64,000 nucleotides of DNA from Candidatus Saccharimonadales bacterium (GCA_050730875.1 JBOHNX010000001.1:230620-294619), one strand, 5' to 3'; shown: positions 9,547-64,000, counted from the first letter of the stretch. Notes: a model not told the origin generated them from the letters alone. A program made the numbers and translations.

Positions 9547-12465
9547 ATGCAGTCGTCCGAAGTGGTCGCCATGCGTCCACGCGTGTTGAACTGGCACCAA
9601 GCGGTGCACTTCTTTTTGCGAGTGGCGCGCTTTGGTATGGTGGGCACCGTGTGCCTGCTAGTGCAGCTCGGCATCATGTGGTTCTTGGTGAATCACGGTA
9701 TCCACGAAAGTCCGGCCAACTCGACCGGGTTCCTACTATCGGCGCAGCTGAACTTTGTGCTGAGTCGCAATTTTACATGGGGGGACAGAACCAAGCAAGG
9801 TCTGCTTCTTGCTAGGCGCTTTGCGCAATGGGTGGCGTTTAATAGCGTCGTCTTGGCAGGGGCAGTCGTCAACTTCCTAGCTTTCGCGGGAGCAACTATG
9901 CTGGATGTACCAATCGTCTACGCCGCAATTGCGGCTGTCGTGCTCGCTATGGGCGTGACGTTCACCTTACACCACTTTGGTGTTTTCAGGCGGCGTCGGC
10001 CCGAGAAAACCGCACTGGTAACCGCCGATCAACTCCGGCAGGTGGCCACTCCACCCGACATGACAAGAGCAAAAGAAGGCGTGGCGTTTTTCATGCCCGC
10101 CTGGAATGAACAGGGCAACATCCGCACTGCTGTGGAGTCGATCCGCAGCGTTCTGAGCGATCTGGGTATGCCGTTCCATGTGTTCGTCATCGATGATGGC
10201 AGCACAGACCTCACGCACGCTGTGGCCAAAGACCTGGCCAAGAAGCATGGCGATGTCACGGCGGTCCATCAGCGCAACCAGGGGTATGGTGGTGCACTGC
10301 GTACCGGGTTCAAGGCCAGTTACGAGAGTGGCTACGGCCTGATCGCCTTCTACGACTCTGACAATCAGTTCCATGCCGAGGATTTCCTGCGTCTACTCGG
10401 TCGCATGCACGAAACCAACGCCGACATGGTGGTCGGCCAGCGAATCAAGCGGGCTGATGGCCTGAGGCGTCTGCTCATGGGCAAGCTCTGGCATTGGCTG
10501 GGGCGCGTCGCGCTGGGCTACAGCGCACACGACGTTGACTGCGGTTTCAAGCTGATGCGGCGCGAGGTGCTGGAGAAGATCCTCCCTCACCTACGCGGCG
10601 AGAAGGCTGCCATTTCACCGGAGCTGCTGGCCTACGCCTGCGGCTTTGGGTTCAATGTGCAGCAGGTCGGTGTGCGGCATCGGCCGCGGCTTAAAGGCGA
10701 ACAGTCAGGTGCAAGCCTGCCTGTCGTCATCGGCTCGATTATCGGGCTCTTCAAGATCCGATCCAATGTACGTAGCGTGCTGCTAGCCGAGGGTATTCGG
10801 AAACACCGACGGCGGCGAATCGATCCGGTGGTGAAAACGGTTGTCGTTCTCGCCAGCTTGCTATCGATCGGCGCGTTCACCTACTTCTACGCACGGGGCG
10901 AGACTCTGGCCTACACGGACAGTATTTCGCACCTGATGATCGCCCGCCGAACTATCGACAGCCCAACACAAGGGCTGGCACAGCTCGGTGGTGTGTGGCC
11001 TCCGTTGCCTCACCTGCTGATGCTTCCCTTCATCTGGAACAACTGGTTGTACTACAGTGGCGTTGGCGGTAGCATTGCTTCGATGCTGGCGTACGTGGTC
11101 GCCACGGTGCTGATATACAAGTTCGTCCGCAGCCTTACGAAGCGAGCGTGGCCAGCGGTGGCCGCGGCCGCTATTTTCGCACTCAACCCGAACGTGCTCT
11201 ACATGCAGGCAACTCCGATGACGGAGATGTTGCTGCTGGCGAGCATCATGGGAGCGGTGTACGGGCTGCTCCGCTGGATCCAGACCAAACACTACCTGTA
11301 CCTCATCGCATCGGCTGGTGCGGCGCTGGGCGCCACGCTTATCCGGTACGAAGGCTGGGTGTTAGTAATCGCGCTGGTGCCGGTTATCGTGTTTGCGGTA
11401 ATTCGGCAACGGCTCGGCCGGGCACAGCTGGAGGGTGCGTTGATCGCATTCCTCACTATGGCCGGCGCCGGCATTGGCGGGTGGTTGCTGTGGAACCAGC
11501 TCATCTTCAACGACTGGCTGGCGTTCCAGCGGGGAGAATACGCAAAGTCATCACTGTGGGTGGGCGCGGGCGAACTGGCGGTTGGCCAGATAGATATCGC
11601 GTTTATGGCCTACACTTGGGCGACGCTAGGTAACGTCACACTGGTGTTCGGTGTCTTGGCCGCAGTCGGGCTCATTGTGTATTTGGTGCGCAGTCGGCTG
11701 TCGGCCGAATCCGCACCTGCGCTGGCGCTGCTGGCGTTCTTCCCCTTCTTCGTGCTGGCACTGTACGCAGGTCAGCGTCCGCTCCACGTTACGCAGATCC
11801 ACAACGACATGTACAACACCAGGTTTGGCCTGGTGATGATTCTGCCGACGGCGGTGTTCGTTGGCTACTTGGTTTCGGTGCTTCGCCGGCCGAAGTGGCG
11901 GGCGTTGCAAACACTATCGCCTATCCTCGCCTGCTGCTTGGCAGTTGGCGTGAGTGCGGCGATGCTGGCAAGCGGAAACACGATTACACTCCAAGATCCG
12001 CTGGCCGAAAAAGCCGAGATTTCCGACCAGTTGGCGCGCGCCGAAGCGGCGTTTTTGCGCGATAACTACACCGGTGGCAAGGTGTTGGTCGAAGCGTTCG
12101 GGAACGAAAGCGTGGTTTTCCATTCTCGCATCCCTCCGGGTGAAGTCATCTACGAGGGAAGTTACCGAATCTGGGAGCCGGCGCTGGCGAACCCGCTGGA
12201 ACACGATATCCAGTGGATCATCATGCGTCGAACGCCCGGGACCGAAGACCTCGTGTACAAGGCCGTTCGAGACACGGCGCGCCTGCAAGGTAACCTTCTC
12301 GACGGCTTTTATGTGCAGGTCTACGCCGACTCAAGCCGACTCATCTTCGCAAGCCCTCAGGCTCAGCGGAAGATGAGCTACGCGCAGGACGGCACTCACC
12401 TGCAAGATGGCGTACCAATCACCTATGTGCCGAAGGAACATTCAAGCCGATCTCCAGGAAGGTAA
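9547..12465 (+). CDS. triple-fusion glycosylation protein: GtrA-like 4-TM domain + GT2 polyprenyl-phosphate sugar synthase (DPM1/GtrB/ArnC-like) + GT-C ArnT/PMT-like multi-TM domain
   Basis: 972 aa; N-terminal GtrA-like helices; GT2 FFMPAWNE...VFVIDDGSTD...YDSDNQF; C-terminal ~550 aa polytopic with YARGETLAYTDSISHLMIARR loop; ~60% GC. Confidence 0.8.
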   Translation: MQSSEVVAMRPRVLNWHQAVHFFLRVARFGMVGTVCLLVQLGIMWFLVNHGIHESPANSTGFLLSAQLNFVLSRNFTWGDRTKQGLLLARRFAQWVAFNSVVLAGAVVNFLAFAGATMLDVPIVYAAIAAVVLAMGVTFTLHHFGVFRRRRPEKTALVTADQLRQVATPPDMTRAKEGVAFFMPAWNEQGNIRTAVESIRSVLSDLGMPFHVFVIDDGSTDLTHAVAKDLAKKHGDVTAVHQRNQGYGGALRTGFKASYESGYGLIAFYDSDNQFHAEDFLRLLGRMHETNADMVVGQRIKRADGLRRLLMGKLWHWLGRVALGYSAHDVDCGFKLMRREVLEKILPHLRGEKAAISPELLAYACGFGFNVQQVGVRHRPRLKGEQSGASLPVVIGSIIGLFKIRSNVRSVLLAEGIRKHRRRRIDPVVKTVVVLASLLSIGAFTYFYARGETLAYTDSISHLMIARRTIDSPTQGLAQLGGVWPPLPHLLMLPFIWNNWLYYSGVGGSIASMLAYVVATVLIYKFVRSLTKRAWPAVAAAAIFALNPNVLYMQATPMTEMLLLASIMGAVYGLLRWIQTKHYLYLIASAGAALGATLIRYEGWVLVIALVPVIVFAVIRQRLGRAQLEGALIAFLTMAGAGIGGWLLWNQLIFNDWLAFQRGEYAKSSLWVGAGELAVGQIDIAFMAYTWATLGNVTLVFGVLAAVGLIVYLVRSRLSAESAPALALLAFFPFFVLALYAGQRPLHVTQIHNDMYNTRFGLVMILPTAVFVGYLVSVLRRPKWRALQTLSPILACCLAVGVSAAMLASGNTITLQDPLAEKAEISDQLARAEAAFLRDNYTGGKVLVEAFGNESVVFHSRIPPGEVIYEGSYRIWEPALANPLEHDIQWIIMRRTPGTEDLVYKAVRDTARLQGNLLDGFYVQVYADSSRLIFASPQAQRKMSYAQDGTHLQDGVPITYVPKEHSSRSPGR

Positions 12466-12471
12466 CTGTCC

Positions 12472-14034
12472 ATGACTGTCACGTTGCACGAGGTAACATC
12501 CACTCCAGTTCGGCGCGACTCGGCCCGGATCGTCATGTCGGGCGGCCAAAAGCTGTTCGCCATGGCGCTGCTGATACTGCTTGGGCTGGATGCGTACTTC
12601 CTGGGCTGGAAGCATCTGCTCATCGTGCTGATCGCTGCATCACAAGTCTTCTACCTGGCATTCGTCGGGTTGAAGTTACTGTTGATGGGGTACTCGTTCG
12701 GTGCGCCAACCGCCGATGGAAAAGGTAGGCTCCCAAGCCTCTACGACCCTGACCTTCCGGTGTTCACCGTTCTTGTGCCGCTCTACAAGGAAAAGCGGCC
12801 CACCATCCTCGGGCTGATCCGTTCGCTGGATAGGCTGCAGTATCCGAAGGATAGGCTGCAAGTCCTCTTGCTGCTCGAGGACCCGAAGGCTGCGCCGGCG
12901 GCAAAGGTTACGCACGAGGCGGTCGATGCCATCGATCTGCCATTAAACGTGCAAAAACTGACGGTGCCGAGCCGGAGCACACGCACCAAACCGGGTGCGT
13001 GCGACTACGGCTTAGCGCGCGCCCGGGGTGATTACACGATCATCTACGATGCCGAGGACCGGCCGGAACCGTTGCAGCTCCTCAAGGCTGTCGCCGGTTT
13101 CCGAAACCTCGGCGAAAACTCCAAGGTCGTCTGCCTGCAGGCGCGGCTAGAGCACTGGAACGTCCGCCGCAACCTCATTACGCGGATGTACTGGGTCGAA
13201 TACGTGTGTCATTTCGAGTTCATCCTTACAGGGCTGGCTAGGCTCGGCCTGGTACCGCCCCTGGGGGGAACTTCGAACATCTTTGTAACTGACGTGCTGC
13301 GCAGAATCGGGCTCCCGCCCGAAGAGCTGCTGCGTGGCGACATGGATCCCGCCGAATTCGCCGGCGCATGGGACCCATGGAACGTCACCGAAGATGCTGA
13401 CATTGCCGGCTGGCTAGCCAGGAACGGCTACCACGTAGCGATGATCGATTCCTTCACGCTGGAGGAAGCCTCACACAAACTCCGCATTGCCGCGAACCAG
13501 CGTGCACGGTGGGGCAAGGGCTACTTCCAGACTGGTCTGGTGCATACGCGCCGACCGCTGAGCGGCATGTGGCAGATGGGACCACGCAAGTGGATCGCAT
13601 ACAATCTGCTGATGCTCGGCACGCCGATCTCCCTGATGATCAACCCGATCTTCTGGGGGCTGACGATCACCTACTTCGCGACACGCTCGACCTTCATCGA
13701 GTCGCTGTTCCCGCCGTGGGTATTCTATGTCGGCGTCATGACCGCTGTCGTCGGCAACTTCCTGATGTTCTATCAGCTCATCATCGCCTGTCTGCACCGC
13801 GACGAGCCTGGGAATGTGAAGTACATGTTCCTGGTGCCGTTGTGGTGGGCGTTCTCGTCGTACTCCATGTGGAAGGGTGTGCTGGAACTGCTGCTTCCGT
13901 GGCTGCGGTTCCACTGGCACGCGACCGAGCATGGGTTCGCTGACGAAACAAGAGAAGAGGAGGCTATCGAGTACCGACTGGCTCTAGCGGTAAAAGCAGA
14001 TGCAGATCGCATCTCGCTCGCTGAAGCCAGCTGA
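12472..14034 (+). CDS. processive family-2 glycosyltransferase (cellulose/chitin/NodC-type synthase) with integral membrane domains
   Basis: 520 aa; DxD in IIYDAEDRPEP and Q(Q/R)xRW in ANQRARWGKG; N- and C-terminal TM helices; separated by 6 bp from the preceding gene. Confidence 0.8.
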   Translation: MTVTLHEVTSTPVRRDSARIVMSGGQKLFAMALLILLGLDAYFLGWKHLLIVLIAASQVFYLAFVGLKLLLMGYSFGAPTADGKGRLPSLYDPDLPVFTVLVPLYKEKRPTILGLIRSLDRLQYPKDRLQVLLLLEDPKAAPAAKVTHEAVDAIDLPLNVQKLTVPSRSTRTKPGACDYGLARARGDYTIIYDAEDRPEPLQLLKAVAGFRNLGENSKVVCLQARLEHWNVRRNLITRMYWVEYVCHFEFILTGLARLGLVPPLGGTSNIFVTDVLRRIGLPPEELLRGDMDPAEFAGAWDPWNVTEDADIAGWLARNGYHVAMIDSFTLEEASHKLRIAANQRARWGKGYFQTGLVHTRRPLSGMWQMGPRKWIAYNLLMLGTPISLMINPIFWGLTITYFATRSTFIESLFPPWVFYVGVMTAVVGNFLMFYQLIIACLHRDEPGNVKYMFLVPLWWAFSSYSMWKGVLELLLPWLRFHWHATEHGFADETREEEAIEYRLALAVKADADRISLAEAS

Positions 14035-34421: not shown

Positions 34422-37400
34422 CTACTGTACTGCTCGGAAAGCGACCATTTGTGAAAGGTAACGGTGCGCGAGCGCGAAGGTGTTTGTTGAGGCAACTTGC
34501 CCAGCCGTTGGTTGGACCATGTCTTGCGTAAAGAGATCTTCGTTATTGACCGAGTTTCGGTACGTGAATCCTGTGCCAGCGGTGATATCGGTTGTCCCAG
34601 TGTCATCCATAATCGCGCCGAAGATTAAGGCGCCGTTGGCTGTGGTTGTGGCGTTGCCACTCGTGATTGCATCTGTGCCAGTAGTGCCGACGGCATTATT
34701 CATGGATGTGACATCCACAGGGTTCGCTGTGTCGATGCCGCTGTACTCATGAATAACCAGGCGGTGGTATTTGGCCGATGCGCTAAAGCTCACTGTCACC
34801 GTATTTGCGCTAGCTTTCACATTGGTCGCGTAGCAAACCGCAAGCGACTGGTTTTTAGTGCTGTCGTATTGGCGGGTAGCAATTGCGTAGACATTACCTT
34901 GTGTGTCGCTACAAGTTGGGTTTGCGTTGCTGCCCCACGAGAATGCAACCACAATTGTATTGCCGATGGTGTTTGGTGTGTCAAAGGCTTGGCTGATAGT
35001 GGCGGCTGACGAGGTGCCGATAGAGGTAGCGGCGGCGTTTTGAATATGGGCGATAGGACTTGGCACGGGGTCTGCCTCTGTTGTAAAGCTGAAGTCACCC
35101 GAAGCCGCAAGGTTCCCTGCACTATCACGCGAAAGCACACGGTAGTGGTAGGTGGTGTTTGATGCCAGGCCACTTAAACCTGCGCTGTGCGAAGTCGCAA
35201 GCGTGGCATTAAGGGGTGTGCTCGAACCATAGGCGGCTGTGGTGCCATATTCAACCTGTGTGTCGGCAGCCTCGTCGGTCGTCCATGTGATGGTAGCAGC
35301 ATTGGTCGTCACGTTCGAACTGCTCACGGCAGAGATGGCCGGCGGAGTGGCATCTGCCGGAGGGGCTGCTTCGGTTGTAAGTGTGGCGCTTGCCGATGTT
35401 GCCACATTGCCAGCCCCGTCCCGCGAAAGTACCCGGTAATGGTATGTCGTACCCGGCTGCAGGCCGCTTAAGGCGTTGCTATGGCTGGTGGTTAATGCGG
35501 TGTTAGGGGCTGTGACTGAGCCAAACTGGTCAGTTGTGCCGTATTCAACTTGCGAATCTGCAGGTTCATCGGTGTCCCAAGTTATAGTTGCTGAGCTTGT
35601 GGTCGCGTTAGAACTCACGATATTCGATATGACTGGCGGTGTAGTGTCTTGCACTGGCGGCTGGGCGGTTGTAAACGTAAAGTCGCCTGACACAGCACTG
35701 TTGCCAGCGGCATCTTTTGAAAGCACGCGGTAATGGTACGTTGTACCGGCTTGCAAACCGCTAAGGTCCGCGCTGTGGTTTGCCGTCAGGTTGGTGCCGA
35801 GCGGTGTGCTCGAACCGTAGGCGGTCGTAGAGCCGTACTCTACTAGGCTGTCAGCTGGCTCGTTAGTTGTCCACTGCACTGTTGCGCCGGCCGTGGTGAC
35901 GTTTGAGCTTGCGACATTGCTGATGCTTGGCGCAGTGGTGTCGGTCGGCGTGCCAGTTGCGAGATCTTGAATTTCTGCTGCGTCAAGCGCGCGACTGTAC
36001 ACGCGGGCATCGTCAATCTTACCGTCCCATTCGCTCGAGTTGCTGCCGGGGTTGCGGCCGATATTTACGCCAACTGTCGGGTCGGTATCGATGGCGCCTG
36101 TCTTCCCTACCCAGCCGACTTCAGTACCGTTGAGGTAGAGCTTCATGGTGGTGCCATCGTAGCGAGCAACAACATGGCTCCACTGGTTTAGCGGGACGTT
36201 GCCGGTAGTGGCGATGAGCGTTTTTGTGGTTCCGCCAGCTTTTAGGCGGAAGCGGAGCACCGTTTGGGTATCTTTTTTGAAAGTCGAAAGCATCCAGTAG
36301 TGGCTTTGCTCCGAGCTGCCGTTTGCTTTGGAGATGATGCGGTTGTCTTGGTAGCTGCCGGTAAACGAGTCGGGGTTGACCCAGGCGCTGATTGTCATTG
36401 CTTGGCCGCTTACGTCAAATGGTTGGATATTCACGTAGTCATCGGCACCGTCAAAATTGACCGCGTTACCAAAACGCCCTGGCGATACGAAGTTCGCGCC
36501 GAGTTCCAGGGTACCGCCTCGCCCGTTCCCTGAGCTGTCTGCTGCCAAGAGCCCGCTTGCTTCGTCAAATTGCCAGTGTCCTTGAAGCGTTGGTGGTACA
36601 ACGGGTGTCGTAAACGTTTCGTCGGTTGATGTTGCCACATTGCCAGCCCCGTCCCGCGAAAGTACCCGGTAATGGTATGTCGTACCCGGCTGCAGGCCGC
36701 TTAAGCTTGCACTGTGGTCTGCCACCATTGTTGCGTTGGGCGGCGTGCTTTGGCCGTAAGCCGTGGTGGTGCCGTATTCTACTTGGCTGTCAGAGACTTC
36801 GTTCGTATTCCAGGTAATGGTGGCTCCAGTTGCTGTGACGTTGTTGCTGGCAACATTTGAAATGACTGGAGCGGTTGTGTCGGGAGTTGCAGTTGTAAAC
36901 GTCAGGTCCGCGGAGACAGTTTGGTTGCTGGCAGCATCGCTTGAAACAACCCGGTAGTGGTACGTTGTCCCAGGGGCAAGGGCGTCCAGGTTAACCGTGT
37001 GTTGCGTGCCAAAGCCTGCCACGGTTTTGGTGCTGCCGTAGGCGGTGTCGGTGCCGTACTCGACTCTGCTGCTGGCGGCTTCGTTGGTCGTCCAGCCGAC
37101 CGTAGCACTGCTTTGAGTCACGTTGGTGGTAGCGACGTTGCTAACAACGGGTGGTGTGATGTCTCCCCCAGACCCGAGCGGCGTGATGGTCACATTGCCA
37201 TACGTCGCGTCGACATGGTGTGCAACAAGCGCGAGTGAACCGTTGGCCAGGCCGCCTGCCGGCACGGTGTTTACAAGGCTCCAGGTTGCTGGCTCAGGTT
37301 GTCCGGCTTCCCACACCTTCATACTGTAGGTGCTACTACCGTCAGGCTGGGTTTCTACCCGCTGTTTCATGAGATAAGTTGTTCCGACTACAGGAGTAGA

Positions 37401-40400
37401 CGCAACGCCATTATTTATGCCATAGTGCTGGAGCTGTGCAGTAGTTTGGTCAGAATTCCAACGCCACCAGCCGATAGCACCGTTCGGATTCCAGCCGGAT
37501 TTTGGCTGCATGCCGGCAATTGGATCGTCAGTATGGCCAGTCCAGCGCATAATAAGGCCGATAGCCGGACGGCCGCCACTTTGTGATGTTTGTGAACTTG
37601 CAAAGTCGACATTGTGGATGGTAATCGGCACTGTTACTTCGTAATCGGTCCAAGCTTTGTCGCCAATCGCCACTAACCGGTCGTAATCGGGTACGCTTGA
37701 GCGCACGCCTTCTGGGGTGAGCGTCCAGTAGCCATCTACGACCTGGGAGACATCAGAGATTTTAGTTGCTGCCGACCAGTCGGCCGTGTACGGCAACGTC
37801 CAGACCTGATTATTTTGATATTGGACGGTCACATCTTCGGTTACTGTTCCGGCTGCGCTATCGGCGGCAATTATGCGGACAGTATTTGAGCCTGGTACTA
37901 AGTCGGTTATTGCCAGGTCGATATTGAAGTCGCCAGGGCGGGCTAATCGGCGTTCGTCGGCACCGATCGAAAGTTGCTTTGAGACGCCACCGTTCAGTGT
38001 ATAAGACAGGCTGGTAACGGTTGGATCGGCGGTGCCAAGGATATTCACCCAGTTTTGCGGCGTGCCTTTGTCGCCAAACACTTGGTTATTGCCGTACCAG
38101 ACATCTACTACATCTGCCGGTGCTGGCGTGCCCACGATTGAGTCGTTGCGCCACAGACGCACAGTTTGGTAGGTGTCGTAACCTATGCTGACGATTTCTA
38201 AATCGCCATCGCCGTCGAGGTCTGCAGAGCGCGCGCCGTTGTGGCTCTCTTTGCCAGTATCGACGGTGTAACTATTCCAGCTAGCACCTCCGCCGACGTT
38301 TGCCCAAACAACAGTCGCTAAATTACCACCTCGGTGTTCGCCAGTGACGATATCGATTTTGCCATCACGCGTAAAGTCGCCGATATCCATGGATTCGATG
38401 GACCCTAAGCCAGTGGCAATGGTGTGCGGCACCCAACCGCCGGTAGAGGTTTGCTCGTACCAATGTAAGAGGCCCTGTTGCGTGTCCAGGTTGTCCTCGG
38501 TAGCGATGATGTCGGGGAGGCTATCACCGTTAACGTCGGCTACTTCGACGCGGGTCATCTCTGCGGTTGTATCGCCTACGAAGTTTTTTGCCCACGAACC
38601 AGCGCCGGTGCCTGGGTTGTTCCACCAGTTGACCTTTAGGCCTTCGGTGGTGCGGCTGCCATGCCAAGCGCCTACTAGGTCAACCCGGCCATCTTTGTTG
38701 ATATCGCCTGCGGCGATGCCTTCTTGGGTGCCGTCGGTATTAACTTGCACGCGCGGCCATGCGCCAGCCGCTGGATTTGCTGGGATGCTGAAATAGTACC
38801 AGCCTTCGTCGCCGCTAAATACCAGCTCGGGCTTGCCGCCCGGCACAATATCGGCCAGTTCGTAGCCTTGGCTTACGCGGTCACGCGACGTGTTCGGGAT
38901 GGTGCCGATAACAGTGTTGGTAAACGTAGTTGCAGCAGCATCGTTTGGTTTGTGCCAGGTGATGTCGATTGGCGCAGTGGTGCTGCGAGTTTGGGAAATG
39001 ATATCGAGTTGGCCATCGCTATCGACGTCGAGCACCAGCATGGCGTCTTTGCCGGCACCAAGGTCCGTGCGCGTCCACGCGCCGTTCAAATTACTGCCCG
39101 GGTTGCGGTACCAGTAGTGCCCGGCGATAATATCTTTTTGGCCGTCCCGGTTCATATCGCCAAAGTCCAGGCCAAATGCTTTCTCTGTTTTAGTTGAGTC
39201 AACGGTTATGTAGCTCCAAGCATTGGGAGTGCTGCCGCTATTCAGTTCGTTCTTCCAGAGATTGAGGTTGCCTTGGTCCGGTGCTTGGGTGGCACTCCAG
39301 TTGGCGCCGAAAATGTCAGTATCGCCGTCGTTATCGACATCACCCAGCGCAATGTTGTGCGAGCCAGTTGCAGCGATGGTTTGGTGCGTCCAGCTTGCGC
39401 CATTGCTTACACCGTAAAATACACCGACGCGGTCGGTGGCAGATTGGTGCATTTCGGCGTACACAATGTCTAGGTTGCCGTCTTTATCAATATCGTTTAC
39501 GTGGAAGCGGTGGATGTCGTCCATGCTGCCATCCGATACGTCGTGGCGGGTCCACGCGCCGTTGATTGGATCAGTTGGGTTCTCGAACCATGCGAGCGTG
39601 CCGAGACCGGCTTCAGATGGCGCCAGAAGTACGTCCATGCGACCGTCTTTGTTAATGTCGGCCACAGTTGTACTACAGCCATCCGTCCAAAGGGTGATGG
39701 TATAACGGAGCCATGCTGTGCCATCGGTGATGTTGCTTGCCGGCTGCTTCAGCCAGTAGCCGTTACCTACTACATCCATGCGACCGTCGCGGTCGATATC
39801 GGTGAGCGCTGTGCCTTGGGCATAGGGGGCATTATTAAGGCGGAATTTTGTCCAGGTGTCGGCGGTCGCGCCTTGCAAATAGACGTGGGTGGTGCCGAGC
39901 TCACCTACACCGCGGGTGACGACATCGAGTTTACCATCGGCATTCATATCACCAACTTGCAAGTCGTGCGAATTGGCAGTGTCGATGACGTGGTGTGTCC
40001 ACGGGCCTTGTGCATTCCCGCCGCTGCCATGAGGGTTTTCGTACCAAGCGATGCCGCCGTTTACAATGACATCGGTTGCGCCATCGTTGTTGATATCGCC
40101 AACCTGCAGATCGTCATCGCCGCCGAGAGTACCAATTTGAAATTTTGTCCAAGAGGGGTTTTTGTACCAGTAGATATTTGTGCCTTGGCCACCACCGCCA
40201 GTAATGGCATCCAGCAGACCGTCGCCATCGACATCCGCTAGGTTTTTGCCCCAGGGTGCTTGCGCAGCTTCGATGGTTGAAAGCGTGAACGGGACGGTTG
40301 CAGCCTTGGCTGGCAACGCAGCAAGCAGCGGTCCGGCTACTGAAAATACTGCAAACAAAGCTGCAGCTAAACCGTAGTTTAAGCGGCTAAAAGTTTTCTT

Positions 40401-40403
40401 CAT
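34422..40403 (-). CDS. giant secreted protein: FG-GAP/VCBS beta-propeller repeats + LamG-like domain + ~6 fibronectin type III domains + C-terminal domain
   Basis: 1993 aa; signal peptide; repeated DxDGDGxxD/DINNDG motifs; LamG-like NFDGADDYVNI...ISAWV; FN3 repeats PPVISNV...VEYGTT..YG. Confidence 0.85.
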   Translation of the reverse strand: MKKTFSRLNYGLAAALFAVFSVAGPLLAALPAKAATVPFTLSTIEAAQAPWGKNLADVDGDGLLDAITGGGGQGTNIYWYKNPSWTKFQIGTLGGDDDLQVGDINNDGATDVIVNGGIAWYENPHGSGGNAQGPWTHHVIDTANSHDLQVGDMNADGKLDVVTRGVGELGTTHVYLQGATADTWTKFRLNNAPYAQGTALTDIDRDGRMDVVGNGYWLKQPASNITDGTAWLRYTITLWTDGCSTTVADINKDGRMDVLLAPSEAGLGTLAWFENPTDPINGAWTRHDVSDGSMDDIHRFHVNDIDKDGNLDIVYAEMHQSATDRVGVFYGVSNGASWTHQTIAATGSHNIALGDVDNDGDTDIFGANWSATQAPDQGNLNLWKNELNSGSTPNAWSYITVDSTKTEKAFGLDFGDMNRDGQKDIIAGHYWYRNPGSNLNGAWTRTDLGAGKDAMLVLDVDSDGQLDIISQTRSTTAPIDITWHKPNDAAATTFTNTVIGTIPNTSRDRVSQGYELADIVPGGKPELVFSGDEGWYYFSIPANPAAGAWPRVQVNTDGTQEGIAAGDINKDGRVDLVGAWHGSRTTEGLKVNWWNNPGTGAGSWAKNFVGDTTAEMTRVEVADVNGDSLPDIIATEDNLDTQQGLLHWYEQTSTGGWVPHTIATGLGSIESMDIGDFTRDGKIDIVTGEHRGGNLATVVWANVGGGASWNSYTVDTGKESHNGARSADLDGDGDLEIVSIGYDTYQTVRLWRNDSIVGTPAPADVVDVWYGNNQVFGDKGTPQNWVNILGTADPTVTSLSYTLNGGVSKQLSIGADERRLARPGDFNIDLAITDLVPGSNTVRIIAADSAAGTVTEDVTVQYQNNQVWTLPYTADWSAATKISDVSQVVDGYWTLTPEGVRSSVPDYDRLVAIGDKAWTDYEVTVPITIHNVDFASSQTSQSGGRPAIGLIMRWTGHTDDPIAGMQPKSGWNPNGAIGWWRWNSDQTTAQLQHYGINNGVASTPVVGTTYLMKQRVETQPDGSSTYSMKVWEAGQPEPATWSLVNTVPAGGLANGSLALVAHHVDATYGNVTITPLGSGGDITPPVVSNVATTNVTQSSATVGWTTNEAASSRVEYGTDTAYGSTKTVAGFGTQHTVNLDALAPGTTYHYRVVSSDAASNQTVSADLTFTTATPDTTAPVISNVASNNVTATGATITWNTNEVSDSQVEYGTTTAYGQSTPPNATMVADHSASLSGLQPGTTYHYRVLSRDGAGNVATSTDETFTTPVVPPTLQGHWQFDEASGLLAADSSGNGRGGTLELGANFVSPGRFGNAVNFDGADDYVNIQPFDVSGQAMTISAWVNPDSFTGSYQDNRIISKANGSSEQSHYWMLSTFKKDTQTVLRFRLKAGGTTKTLIATTGNVPLNQWSHVVARYDGTTMKLYLNGTEVGWVGKTGAIDTDPTVGVNIGRNPGSNSSEWDGKIDDARVYSRALDAAEIQDLATGTPTDTTAPSISNVASSNVTTAGATVQWTTNEPADSLVEYGSTTAYGSSTPLGTNLTANHSADLSGLQAGTTYHYRVLSKDAAGNSAVSGDFTFTTAQPPVQDTTPPVISNIVSSNATTSSATITWDTDEPADSQVEYGTTDQFGSVTAPNTALTTSHSNALSGLQPGTTYHYRVLSRDGAGNVATSASATLTTEAAPPADATPPAISAVSSSNVTTNAATITWTTDEAADTQVEYGTTAAYGSSTPLNATLATSHSAGLSGLASNTTYHYRVLSRDSAGNLAASGDFSFTTEADPVPSPIAHIQNAAATSIGTSSAATISQAFDTPNTIGNTIVVAFSWGSNANPTCSDTQGNVYAIATRQYDSTKNQSLAVCYATNVKASANTVTVSFSASAKYHRLVIHEYSGIDTANPVDVTSMNNAVGTTGTDAITSGNATTTANGALIFGAIMDDTGTTDITAGTGFTYRNSVNNEDLFTQDMVQPTAGQVASTNTFALAHRYLSQMVAFRAVQ

Positions 40404-61117: not shown

Positions 61118-61382
61118 ACTTCACCTCTTCGTTAATTTATTTGTTCGACCAGATTGTTAAACTGCGTATTCGAGAACAAAAGAAAAAGTCTTTGGTTCTC
61201 GCATTACCAAAGACTTGTGGCGGATGAATAAACAAATTGTTTGCTTCATTTCCTCGGTAGCGGATTAAGTTCTTGTTCAGAACGGCTACTGTCTGTGGCA
61301 ATGTTCGTTAGCATTTTATAAAAATATTGTTCGCTCGTCAACACCTCTGCAAAATAAAAGGCAACTATTCCTTGATGTAATG

Positions 61383-61411
61383 TTGCGGTAATGTCATAAA
61401 TATTCTATAAT
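61383..61411 (+). promoter_or_regulatory. sigma70-like promoter TTGCGG-17-TATAAT, only ~15 nt before the helicase ATG (near-leaderless)
   Basis: hexamers with 17-bp spacer; no SD before ATG 61427. Confidence 0.35.
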
Positions 61412-61426
61412 ACCATATTGTTTTTA

Positions 61427-64000
61427 TGGACAAATCTCGTGAGCATCAAGACATCCTCCTCGAAGAGCGTCGTCGTCGCGCTGCAGGCTGGCTAACCGAA
61501 CGGGTTCGACCGGCTGCTCATGTATTGGCTGAAGGTTTAGAGGCGGATCGACCAAGCGAAATAGAGATTCGCGAATATCAGCTCGATGCTTGGATTAATT
61601 TATGGGATGCTCGTCAAGAAGGCAAAAATCGTGCTCTTATTCATTTAGCAACTGGTCTTGGCAAGACCTTTGTGGCAGTTTGTGACGTCATGAAGTTTCG
61701 TGAGGAGTGGGCTGCCGCAAATAGCGACGGTACGACACCCCGAATACTTTTTGTTAGCCACAAAAACGAAATTAACGAGCAGGCCGCAGAAGACTTTTTG
61801 AGCGTCATGCCCGATCTGGACATCGATATGTTCGAGACGCAACGAGAAAGCTTACGGGATGTGGACATTCGCTTTGCTACCTTTCAATCTCTGTTGAGCG
61901 AAAAGGACAACTTTGACCCGCAGGATTATGAATACATCATTTATGACGAAGCTCATCATACGGAAGCCGAGACGTTTAGGGAAATCCGTGATTATTTTGA
62001 CCCATTGTTTGAGTTAGCGCTTACCGCCACCCCCCGTCGCATGGACGAACAGGATATTACAGAATACTTTGGTGTACCTGTTTATAGTAAGGACCTGCCC
62101 GAAGCTATGGCAGAAGGTTTGCTGGCTGATGTGGAATATCACATTATGCTCGATGATGCGGTAAGAGAAACGATTGAGAGCGGCTTCGATCCAAAGACTT
62201 TAGCCGAACTCTATGAGCTAATGCGCGTCATGCCGCGCAATGAGAAAATTGCCGATCATATTCGTGACGAGCAACGTAAACAAGGCGATAAAGTTAAAAC
62301 AATAGTTTTCTGTCAGGACGTAAATCATGTTAATGCAATGGCCGGCGAGCTGGGTGCTGTTGCTTATCATTCGAAGATGTCAAAGAAAGCGCGTCGGCAA
62401 ATCCTTAAAGATTTTCGATCGGGCAAAATCCGTACGGTTTGTACTCGTGACATGTTTAATGAAGGGGTAAACATACCCGATGCCACTATCCTCGCATTTA
62501 CACGTATGACAGGTAGTGAAACGATATACTTCCAACAGCTCGGACGCGGCTTACGTGGGCGTAACAAAAAAGTGACCGTCCTCGACTTCGTGGCAAATGT
62601 TGAACGGATTGCCAAGCTACGTGAATTAAGCGAAACAATTCGTCGCCACGCCGAAGAACTCGGCGATGAAACAAGCGAGTCAGCCGATGATGAGCAGGGA
62701 GGCGATATCGGGCTTCAAGTACAGACGAGCCATACAGAGTTTGATTTTGACAAGTTAGTTGTGGATCTGCTCGAAAAGTTTAATGAATTTAGCTATGATC
62801 CTGCGCCGGAAGGTTATTTGAGTGTCAAGGCAGTCGCCAGAGAATTGGGCATCTCTGAGTCTACGGTAACGAAAATAGCTAATCGTTTGGGGTGGGAACT
62901 ACCTTTATTCAAATTCTATTCGACCGTGGGGCGTGGTGTCAGCCCCGAACAATTATATATGCTTCGGACTGAGGATGAGGTTATAACCGAAAGGGCCACG
63001 CAGGATTTCTTCAGTCTCACTGCCCTGGGCAAATCTTTAAATATTGCGCCAGCTACTTTAGAGGCGAGAATTGACCAAATGGGATGGGAGCTTACATATC
63101 GTAGATTTGGTTCAATCATAGCAAGAGCGATCTCACAATCACAAGTCGATGAATTGCGCCAGCGTTTCCCCGACACTTTCCTCCCGATTATTCCATACGA
63201 ATTAACTAGCGTTCCTGCCGCCGCTAGCGACTTAAGCGTGAGTATCCCGACGCTCACTAAAATAATTACCGAAATAGGCTGGGAACTTCCGCGCTTTAGG
63301 GCTCGATCGGGTAATGTTATTCAAGCCCTAGATACTACACAAATTGAATTTCTAAAGAATCATCCTATGATCAAGACTGAAGTAGGGCAAGGCAATGCCG
63401 TCAGCATTCAAGCGGCCGCCAAAGAGCTCCGCTCAAGCAAGCAAAGGGTGCTAGAGATCGCTGCCGAGCTCGGAATAGAAGTAGTAAACTATAGATTTGG
63501 CTCCCATACAACAGAAGGATTAACGAGTGCTCAAGTGGAGTTGCTCAAAACTCACCCATACTTTGCCAACGTTGCGCCCGAAGGTTATATAAGCATAAGA
63601 AATGCCAGAACTTTATTAAAGGTAGGCCAGGCGAATTTGGAGCGGGTTATTGCTAGTCAGGGCTGGGTTTTGCCTGAGTACAGATTTAAGGGGCAAACAG
63701 CGCTCGCACTCAGTCCGTCCCAGTTTAACCAACTAGCCGAACTTATTGCGCCAAGCGCGCAAAAAGCGCCGGCTAATTATACGAGTGTTGTGGCTTTTGC
63801 GGCAGAGCTTGGTTCTACCCACACAACAGTAACTAAGCTCACTCGAAAATATGGTATACCAGTCGAAAAACACATATACCAGGGTACCCAATTAATCGAT
63901 AGTTTGAGCCCTGATTCCCAAGCTGCACTTAAGGCATTGCCTGAACTCCAAAGAAGGACAGCACCAGAAGGCTATGTAAGCGTATATTCTTTTGCTAAAC
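61427..64000 (+). CDS. SF2 DEAH-box helicase (ResIII/COG1061-like core) fused to a tandem array of at least 7 excisionase/MerR-type HTH (HTH_17-like) modules; partial, runs off the window end
   Basis: open frame of >850 codons not in the ORF track because no stop is reached; motifs REYQ, ATGLGKT, DEAH, TATP, QQLGRGLR; repeats of ...PEGYxSV..xAxELGxSxxTVxKxxxxxGWELPxxRF... Confidence 0.8.

Follow-up and report, generated by a model that had tools for sequence, protein, structure and literature searches.

Gene and protein architecture

The window analyzed in this study is a stretch of 64,000 nucleotides (nt) from a Candidatus Saccharimonadales bacterium (GCA_050730875.1 JBOHNX010000001.1:230620-294619), and its right-hand end is occupied by the open reading frame (ORF) of a helicase. 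This gene encodes an intact superfamily 2 (SF2) motor followed by seven tandem copies of a winged helix-turn-helix (wHTH) domain of the MerR/excisionase type, an architecture that is real, widespread and unnamed. The ORF starts with the ATG at 61426 on the plus strand and its frame stays open through the window end; reading of the sequence found no further in-frame start between the upstream stop and this ATG. A preliminary description of this DNA had given 61427 as the start, but that frame contains many stops and the true start lies one base upstream. That description had also called for the full-length ORF from the contig beyond the window, and this was obtained as an identical public protein of 906 amino acids (aa), here P0001, from a Candidatus Saccharimonadales metagenome-assembled genome, whose NCBI name is only 'DEAD/DEAH box helicase'. 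P0001 is encoded on a 556 kb contig and also on an independent 58.5 kb assembly. Since the identical protein is public, it can be stated that the gene terminates 144 nt past the window and that the window misses only the final 48 residues of P0001. The complete gene spans 10001-12721 in a 22.7 kb locus (L004).

The first 45 residues (61426..61560, +) form an N-terminal extension with a helix at aa 5-26 and then a low-confidence loop in the full-length model. No Pfam match and no nuclease domain was found in this extension, and its 'RR..VA.WI' stretch reappears in the consensus of the homologues.

The motor core and the coupler

The SF2 helicase/translocase core occupies aa 46-395 (61561..62610, +). 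The motifs are IREYQ at 48-52, ATGLGKT (Walker A) at 75-81, DEAHH at 174-178, TATP at 200-203 and QQLGRGLR at 370-377, so that motifs Q, I, II (DEAH), III and VI are all intact, and they are invariant across 44 full-length homologues. Pfam matched both ResIII (7e-31) and Helicase_C (2e-15) beyond their cut-offs, as the preliminary description had suggested checking, and every motif it had quoted for a complete ResIII-type core was found. By sequence, the closest solved proteins are SauUSI (7clg; 1e-37 by phmmer over aa 45-393) and then a Vibrio HsdR fragment (3h1t; 1e-25), with archaeal XPB and RadD also among the nearest relatives in the PDB sequence search; DEAD-box RNA helicases gave much weaker matches to the motor than these duplex-DNA translocases. 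HsdR, XPB and RadD are duplex-DNA motors that are each held in place by another DNA-binding part. The full-length AlphaFold (AF2) model has a mean predicted local distance difference test (pLDDT) score of 86.4, with most of the core at 85-96. In this model the core consists of two RecA-like domains folded as in known members, and Foldseek ranked 7clg SauUSI (9.5e-19), HsdR 3h1t (1.4e-17), XPB (2.3e-17) and RadD (1.1e-15) ahead of chromatin remodelers. Sequence and predicted structure together place the motor in the ResIII-type SF2 clade of double-stranded DNA (dsDNA) translocases, and translocation itself is predicted from this placement.

The core is joined to the array by an acidic linker and a beta-hairpin/helix element, aa 396-459 (62611..62802, +; HTEFDFDKLVVDLLEKF), recognized from its charge, its conservation and the model. 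This region has a net charge of -12 and an isoelectric point (pI) of 4.2. Within it the model places strands at 430-433 and 437-441 and a helix at 443-456, and residues F439, F441 and L449 are invariant or nearly so in homologues. The same element (FDFD...LLEKF) is retained in sister helicases, where it precedes HNH_repeat arrays, and also ahead of viral HTH arrays. Because all sister helicases keep the hairpin-helix element, whatever type of repeat comes after it, it may couple the motor to the array, and it is called the coupler here.

Sequence of the repeat array

The array covers aa 460-906 and consists of seven units of 61-65 aa that start at residues 460, 525, 590, 655, 717, 781 and 846. 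Copies were scored with a profile built solely from repeats of other proteins, and 200 composition-preserving shuffles of the array served as the control. Repeat 1 (aa 460-524, 62803..62997) reached 71.5 bits with this leave-out profile, repeat 2 (aa 525-589, 62998..63192) 46.4 bits, repeat 3 (aa 590-654, 63193..63387) 40.6 bits, repeat 4 (aa 655-716, 63388..63573) 49.2 bits, repeat 5 (aa 717-780, 63574..63765) 52.4 bits and repeat 6 (aa 781-845, 63766..63960) 47.0 bits, all on the plus strand. Only the first 13 aa of repeat 7 (aa 846-858 of 846-906; 63961..64000, +) lie within the window, and in the full protein this copy scores 63.1 bits. The seven copies therefore span 40.6-71.5 bits (E 1e-14 to 3e-24), whereas the shuffled arrays peak at 2.6 bits. 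The helicase ORF is the sole repeat-bearing ORF in the window. An array beginning at about nt 62800, as had been described earlier, agrees with the first base of repeat 1 at 62803; of the 'seven or more repeats of roughly 75 aa' that were also described, the number seven holds for the whole protein, but the unit is shorter and six copies are complete in the window.

The consensus of the repeat family is EEAPEGYVSVNAFAKELGISKKTLKKLIEELGIELPRYRFGGRTGRGLSPEQQEQLREAL. Mean pairwise amino-acid identity among the seven P0001 copies is 25% and no DNA-level tandem repeat was found within the gene, so the copies are old. Repeat 1 is the best-conserved copy of the family and had its top identity to the first repeats of homologues in three of four comparisons. 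In orthologues with ten repeats, each copy is closest to the copy at the same position in the other protein (43-86% on the diagonal versus about 40% within one protein). These diagonal-dominated identity matrices show that the copies hold individual, maintained identities and have not been homogenized.

Fold of the repeat and signs of DNA binding

An AF2 model of repeat 1 was made from an alignment of 97 diverse repeats and has a pLDDT of 91.9. It shows a short strand, helices at 8-15 and 19-29, a hairpin at 35-38/41-46 and two further helices. This is the MerR/excisionase-type arrangement of a first beta strand, helix, turn, helix and beta-hairpin wing. Foldseek against the PDB returned, at probabilities of 0.9-1.0, the RacA DNA-binding domain, BldC, pSK1 Par, the RdfS excisionase, MerR regulators and Pukovnik Xis, and the best structural matches are DNA-bound MerR-like wHTH domains. 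The full-length model gives all seven copies, repeats 2 to 6 included, the same secondary-structure pattern at high confidence. Sequence families do not capture the unit. Repeat 1 scored 17.1 bits against HTH_17 (PF12728; cut-off 27), three of the 97 repeats matched HTH_17 at E<0.01, no Pfam family was matched by more than five of the 97, and the NCBIfam excisionase/'excise' and BldC models did not match P0001. The earlier assignment of the repeats to HTH_17/Xis-type modules thus holds for the fold but falls below the HTH_17 cut-off in sequence.

The pI of the array is 8.8, compared with 5.0 for the core and 4.2 for the linker. Across 216 repeats, Lys or Arg dominates positions 13, 24, 37 and 55, while the five most variable positions are 9, 19, 20, 23 and 44. 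Positions 19, 20 and 23 form the start of the second HTH helix, and wing positions 41-42 are variable too. The conserved basic residues at 24 and 37 and the variable residues at 19, 20 and 23, placed on the predicted fold, point indirectly to duplex-DNA binding by the array through helix 2 and the wing.

Spread of the family and related architectures

Among the 120 closest homologues, 51 bear between one and ten copies of the repeat. An exhaustive profile search found the repeat in 3606 representative proteins (clusters) at E ≤ 1e-3 and in 232 at E ≤ 1e-30, with a maximum of 14 copies in one protein; a word-indexed protein search gave no match for the repeat profile. Of the 134 new top matches, 31 contain a helicase core, some of them belonging to a second ResIII lineage that is more distant, and 103 do not. 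In about 80 of these 103, the 4-10 repeats are preceded by an N-terminal domain of about 275 aa. This domain had no match in Pfam, NCBIfam or the PDB sequences, nor in the word-indexed search. Its family (P0123, P0134, P0171, P0184, P0203 and about 75 more) conserves the stretches PRLKTxLFxLxNEF and LVCDEEGNxTFVF. Since the array occurs on both helicase and non-helicase proteins, it is a portable module.

Arrays are thus found on at least three effector domains, namely the two helicase lineages and the domain of about 275 aa. In a more ambitious and rather unlikely reading, the 64-aa wHTH unit would be a modular, position-specific DNA reader and 3-14 copies would spell long composite addresses. 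Each copy would then recognize a short site of its own, using the variable residues with which helix 2 begins. If this were true, the repeat would be a bacterial counterpart of TALE and zinc-finger arrays, and one that occurs chiefly in the candidate phyla radiation.

Many other homologues have cores that are 45-62% identical and the same post-core element (FDFD...LLEK), and they end in HNH_repeat or DUF4817 arrays. PF18780 (HNH_repeat) does not match P0001 but does match sister proteins such as P0016 and P0041. No Pfam or NCBIfam model was found for the P0001 repeat and literature searches found no paper describing a helicase with a wHTH array, so the statement that this architecture had not been described stands as far as papers and curated families are concerned. 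It would be wrong to regard it as rare, however, because the family is large and has catalogued HNH_repeat sisters.

Genomic position and neighboring genes

In L004 the gene order is secE, nusG, rplK, rplA, DNMK, DCD and a thymidylate-kinase-like gene; next come, on the opposite strand, a 318-aa ORF, a 45-aa ORF and the helicase; rplJ and rplL follow. The rplA-rplJ interval that contains the helicase is 7.1 kb long (L004 9693-16815), and the longer contig bears out the odd position, splitting rplKA from rplJL, that was noted for the window. In 80 related metagenome loci recovered through RplJ (L101-L172), the gap between rplA and rplJ measures anything between 337 bp and about 8 kb, and none of the 80 has the helicase there. 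The gaps of the closest relatives hold pyrimidine deoxynucleotide genes (DNMK, DCD, Tmk, ThyA, dCMP-deaminase-like and NUDIX). The gap is therefore a variable spot, and the presence of the helicase in it is specific to this genome among the loci compared. The GC content of the gene is slightly below that of its neighbors (0.44-0.47 versus 0.46-0.54).

The helicase is transcribed divergently from rplJL. An L10 leader (RF00557) lies upstream of rplJ at 61173-61316 on the minus strand (57 bits versus a gathering threshold of 44), and a promoter-like site, TTGACG-17-TAAAAT, was recognized by its sequence pattern at 61341-61313 (-). With its own leader and promoter-like site, rplJL is an independent unit that faces away from the helicase. 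A putative helicase promoter at 61383..61411 (+) has a -35 element TTGCGG (61383-61388), a 17-nt spacer and a -10 element TATAAT (61406-61411). This is a pattern match with a perfect -10 and only three of six -35 positions, and a consensus scan skipped it because of the weak -35. The predicted leader is about 6-9 nt and lacks a Shine-Dalgarno sequence. The preliminary description of a near-leaderless gene behind a consensus promoter was thus right about the -10 and the short leader and overstated the -35.

Elsewhere in the window, at 34422-40403 (-), a 1993-aa ORF has a signal-peptide-like start, numerous FG-GAP/VCBS-like 'DxDGDG' repeats, several recurring fibronectin-III-like 'TTYHYRV' modules and a lectin-like segment. 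Judged by eye, this is probably a giant surface protein.

Eight loci with family members were compared all-against-all, and no shared neighbor, no adjoining nuclease or methyltransferase, no hsdM or hsdS and no Bax1-like gene was found in them. L004 and L009 each have a 318-aa ORF after the helicase, but these two ORFs are not related to each other, and the neighbors have no informative Pfam match. One locus (L006, 8001-13783) carries two family members in tandem, of 1092 aa and then 906 aa, that are 57% identical. In another (L005, 8001-11282 and 17195-19282) two copies lie 6 kb apart and the second is from the more distant helicase lineage. These tandem and nearby copies show that paralogue expansion occurs. 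In L013 (2509-5897) a family member comes right after genes encoding a Schlafen/AlbA_2-HATPase protein, an IS1595 transposase and Replic_Relax, a hint that in this genome it may belong to a mobile element or an island.

These comparisons bear on the suggestion that the protein serves restriction or defense. Such a protein would be a restriction-like or antiphage motor in which the array recognizes the target, a task that falls to the C-terminal domain in SauUSI, and the motor either draws in foreign DNA for a nuclease acting in trans or blocks phage replication unaided. The nearest solved and defense-library relatives of the core are indeed restriction enzymes (SauUSI, HsdR and PADLOC mREase_IV). 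Additionally, copy number varies from one to ten in the closest homologues and up to 14 elsewhere, paralogues occur in tandem or separated by a few kb, the contexts are variable (the L013 genes above and a PIN gene in L006), and helix 2 begins with highly variable residues. However, P0001 lacks PLD and PD-(D/E)xK nuclease domains as well as DUF3427. The mREase_IV model, although it is the best PADLOC match (1e-39), covers only the helicase segment (model positions 237-569 of 945). The repeats keep their positions between orthologues rather than being shuffled, and phage helicase profiles outscore the defense profiles. With no partner genes in the eight loci, the restriction or defense reading lacks support from context, and it is considered unlikely.

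Relatives in mobile elements

The array was not found in annotated phage and plasmid records, where all matches were to the core only and none reached ≥80% coverage. Three IMG/VR contigs of about 40 kb each do encode core homologues (37-44% identical, E down to 4e-107). These proteins retain the coupler and end in another, shorter type of HTH repeat, whose unit of about 50 aa is recognizable in at least two or three copies. In L015 (2873-7722) the viral homologue adjoins RecT and a RecE-like exonuclease, and in L014 (4572-8640) it adjoins an SNF2-type helicase and Sak4; the third contig is L016 (234-1733). The PHROG family phrog_16, 'DNA helicase', matched P0001 at 217 bits (9e-64), compared with 134 bits for the best defense model.

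Alternatively, P0001 might be a replication helicase from a mobile element that has integrated or decayed, with the array bound to origin repeats or iterons while the motor opens the DNA. The replication and recombination modules around the viral relatives, the phrog_16 match, and the location of the gene in a genome-variable stretch of slightly lower GC are all consistent with this. On the other hand, no integrase, primase, terminase or other phage gene surrounds the gene in L004, no iteron-like DNA repeats lie near it, annotated phage and plasmid records lack the array, and the chromosomal homologues are dispersed among ordinary genes. An origin-binding role of this kind is quite unlikely.

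Discussion

The explanation that best fits the data is that P0001 is a stand-alone accessory SF2 dsDNA translocase that is targeted by its covalent array of seven wHTH modules, and a probability of roughly 0.55 is assigned to it. The domain architecture, the intact motor motifs, the fold of the repeat, the spread of the family and the lack of partner genes are established, whereas binding of DNA, translocation and a cellular role are inferred. In the proposed mechanism the mildly basic array would lie along DNA, and each module would use its second helix and beta-hairpin wing, by analogy with free BldC, Xis and RdfS subunits arranged head-to-tail. With seven modules in one chain, the protein could stay anchored to a site that extends over several tens of base pairs. 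The acidic linker and coupler would tether a motor like those of SauUSI, HsdR and XPB, which would spend ATP to pull, loop, open or clear the DNA beside the anchor. Because neither P0001 nor the adjoining genes encode a nuclease, the output would be DNA remodeling or unwinding and not cleavage. A role in DNA processing of the recombination or replication type, with an origin in mobile elements, is favored over restriction with modest confidence, since the closest relatives in mobile elements lie in phage recombination and replication modules.

Several observations weigh against this proposal. The arrangement of the repeats relative to each other is unreliable in the full-length model (predicted template modeling score 0.55). 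Single P0001 repeats are near neutral, with net charges of -1 to +3, and the wHTH fold also occurs in the protein-binding proteins CbpM and DafA and in the N-domain of IF2. These last two points would fit repeats that are protein- or RNA-binding modules, making P0001 a scaffolded helicase that works on RNA or within a protein complex. The DNA-bound structural matches of the repeat and the duplex-DNA relatives of the motor point the other way, and this alternative is regarded as improbable. Additionally, no array of candidate DNA target sites was found in the window or in L004, where the only matches were trivial two-copy ones. The claim that the protein reads repeated DNA sites, made when the gene was first noted, therefore stays conjectural. 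Finally, the chromosomal copies of the family sit outside recombination modules, so the proposed role is borrowed from viral relatives with a different type of repeat.

The protein adds a predicted DNA-transaction enzyme to the Saccharibacteria, whose small genomes bear one or more copies, and DNA binding of the kind outlined above may provide modular addressing of long DNA sites.

Comparison with known systems

SauUSI (entry 7CLG), a type IV ATP-dependent restriction enzyme, follows a similar logic in that an SF2 dsDNA translocase is followed by a C-terminal DNA-recognition part (PMC7913695). It differs at both ends, with a PLD nuclease at the N-terminus and one C-terminal domain that reads modifications, where P0001 has a 45-aa N-terminus and seven wHTH domains. 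A SauUSI-like type IV enzyme (mREase_IV) was rejected as an identity for P0001, in which Pfam detects neither the N-terminal PLD nuclease nor a C-terminal DUF3427/SRA-like domain. HsdR of the EcoAI/FtnUII type, XPB and RadD share the fold and motifs of the ResIII-type motor. However, NCBIfam scores fall far below the thresholds for HsdR (EcoAI 119.5 versus 550; TIGR00348 35 versus 285), XPB (66 versus 610 bits) and RadD (59 versus 720 bits), and the nuclease domain of HsdR is missing. Judged by these profiles, P0001 belongs to none of the SauUSI, HsdR, XPB and RadD families.

The phage SF2 helicases (phrog_16 and the three viral homologues) are similar in the core, in the coupler and in having a C-terminal HTH array, but they differ in the size of the HTH unit and in their recombination and replication neighbors, which the chromosomal gene does not have. 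The HNH_repeat (PF18780) and DUF4817 sister helicases are of the same clade, have the post-core coupler as well and likewise end in small helical modules arrayed in tandem, but their repeat unit is unrelated in sequence to that of P0001. Motors fused to a single DNA-binding domain are ordinary. Fusions of helicases with DNA-binding domains are already known and the HNH_repeat sister architecture is already catalogued, whereas a motor with a long covalent array of MerR/Xis-type wHTH domains is not a described design.

For the array itself the closest parallels are BldC, RacA, pSK1 Par and Xis/RdfS, which are free subunits of 50-70 aa that form non-covalent oligomers. BldC multimers bind 9-bp direct repeats head-to-tail with 9 bp per subunit (PMC5859096), and RdfS forms oligomeric wHTH filaments that recognize long regions (PMC11963761). 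P0001 differs from all of these in that seven diverged copies, which score below the HTH_17 and BldC cut-offs, are covalently fused to each other and to a motor. If the array binds DNA in the manner of the BldC and Xis filaments, it would be a naturally occurring counterpart of such cooperative nucleoprotein filaments, built as a single chain.

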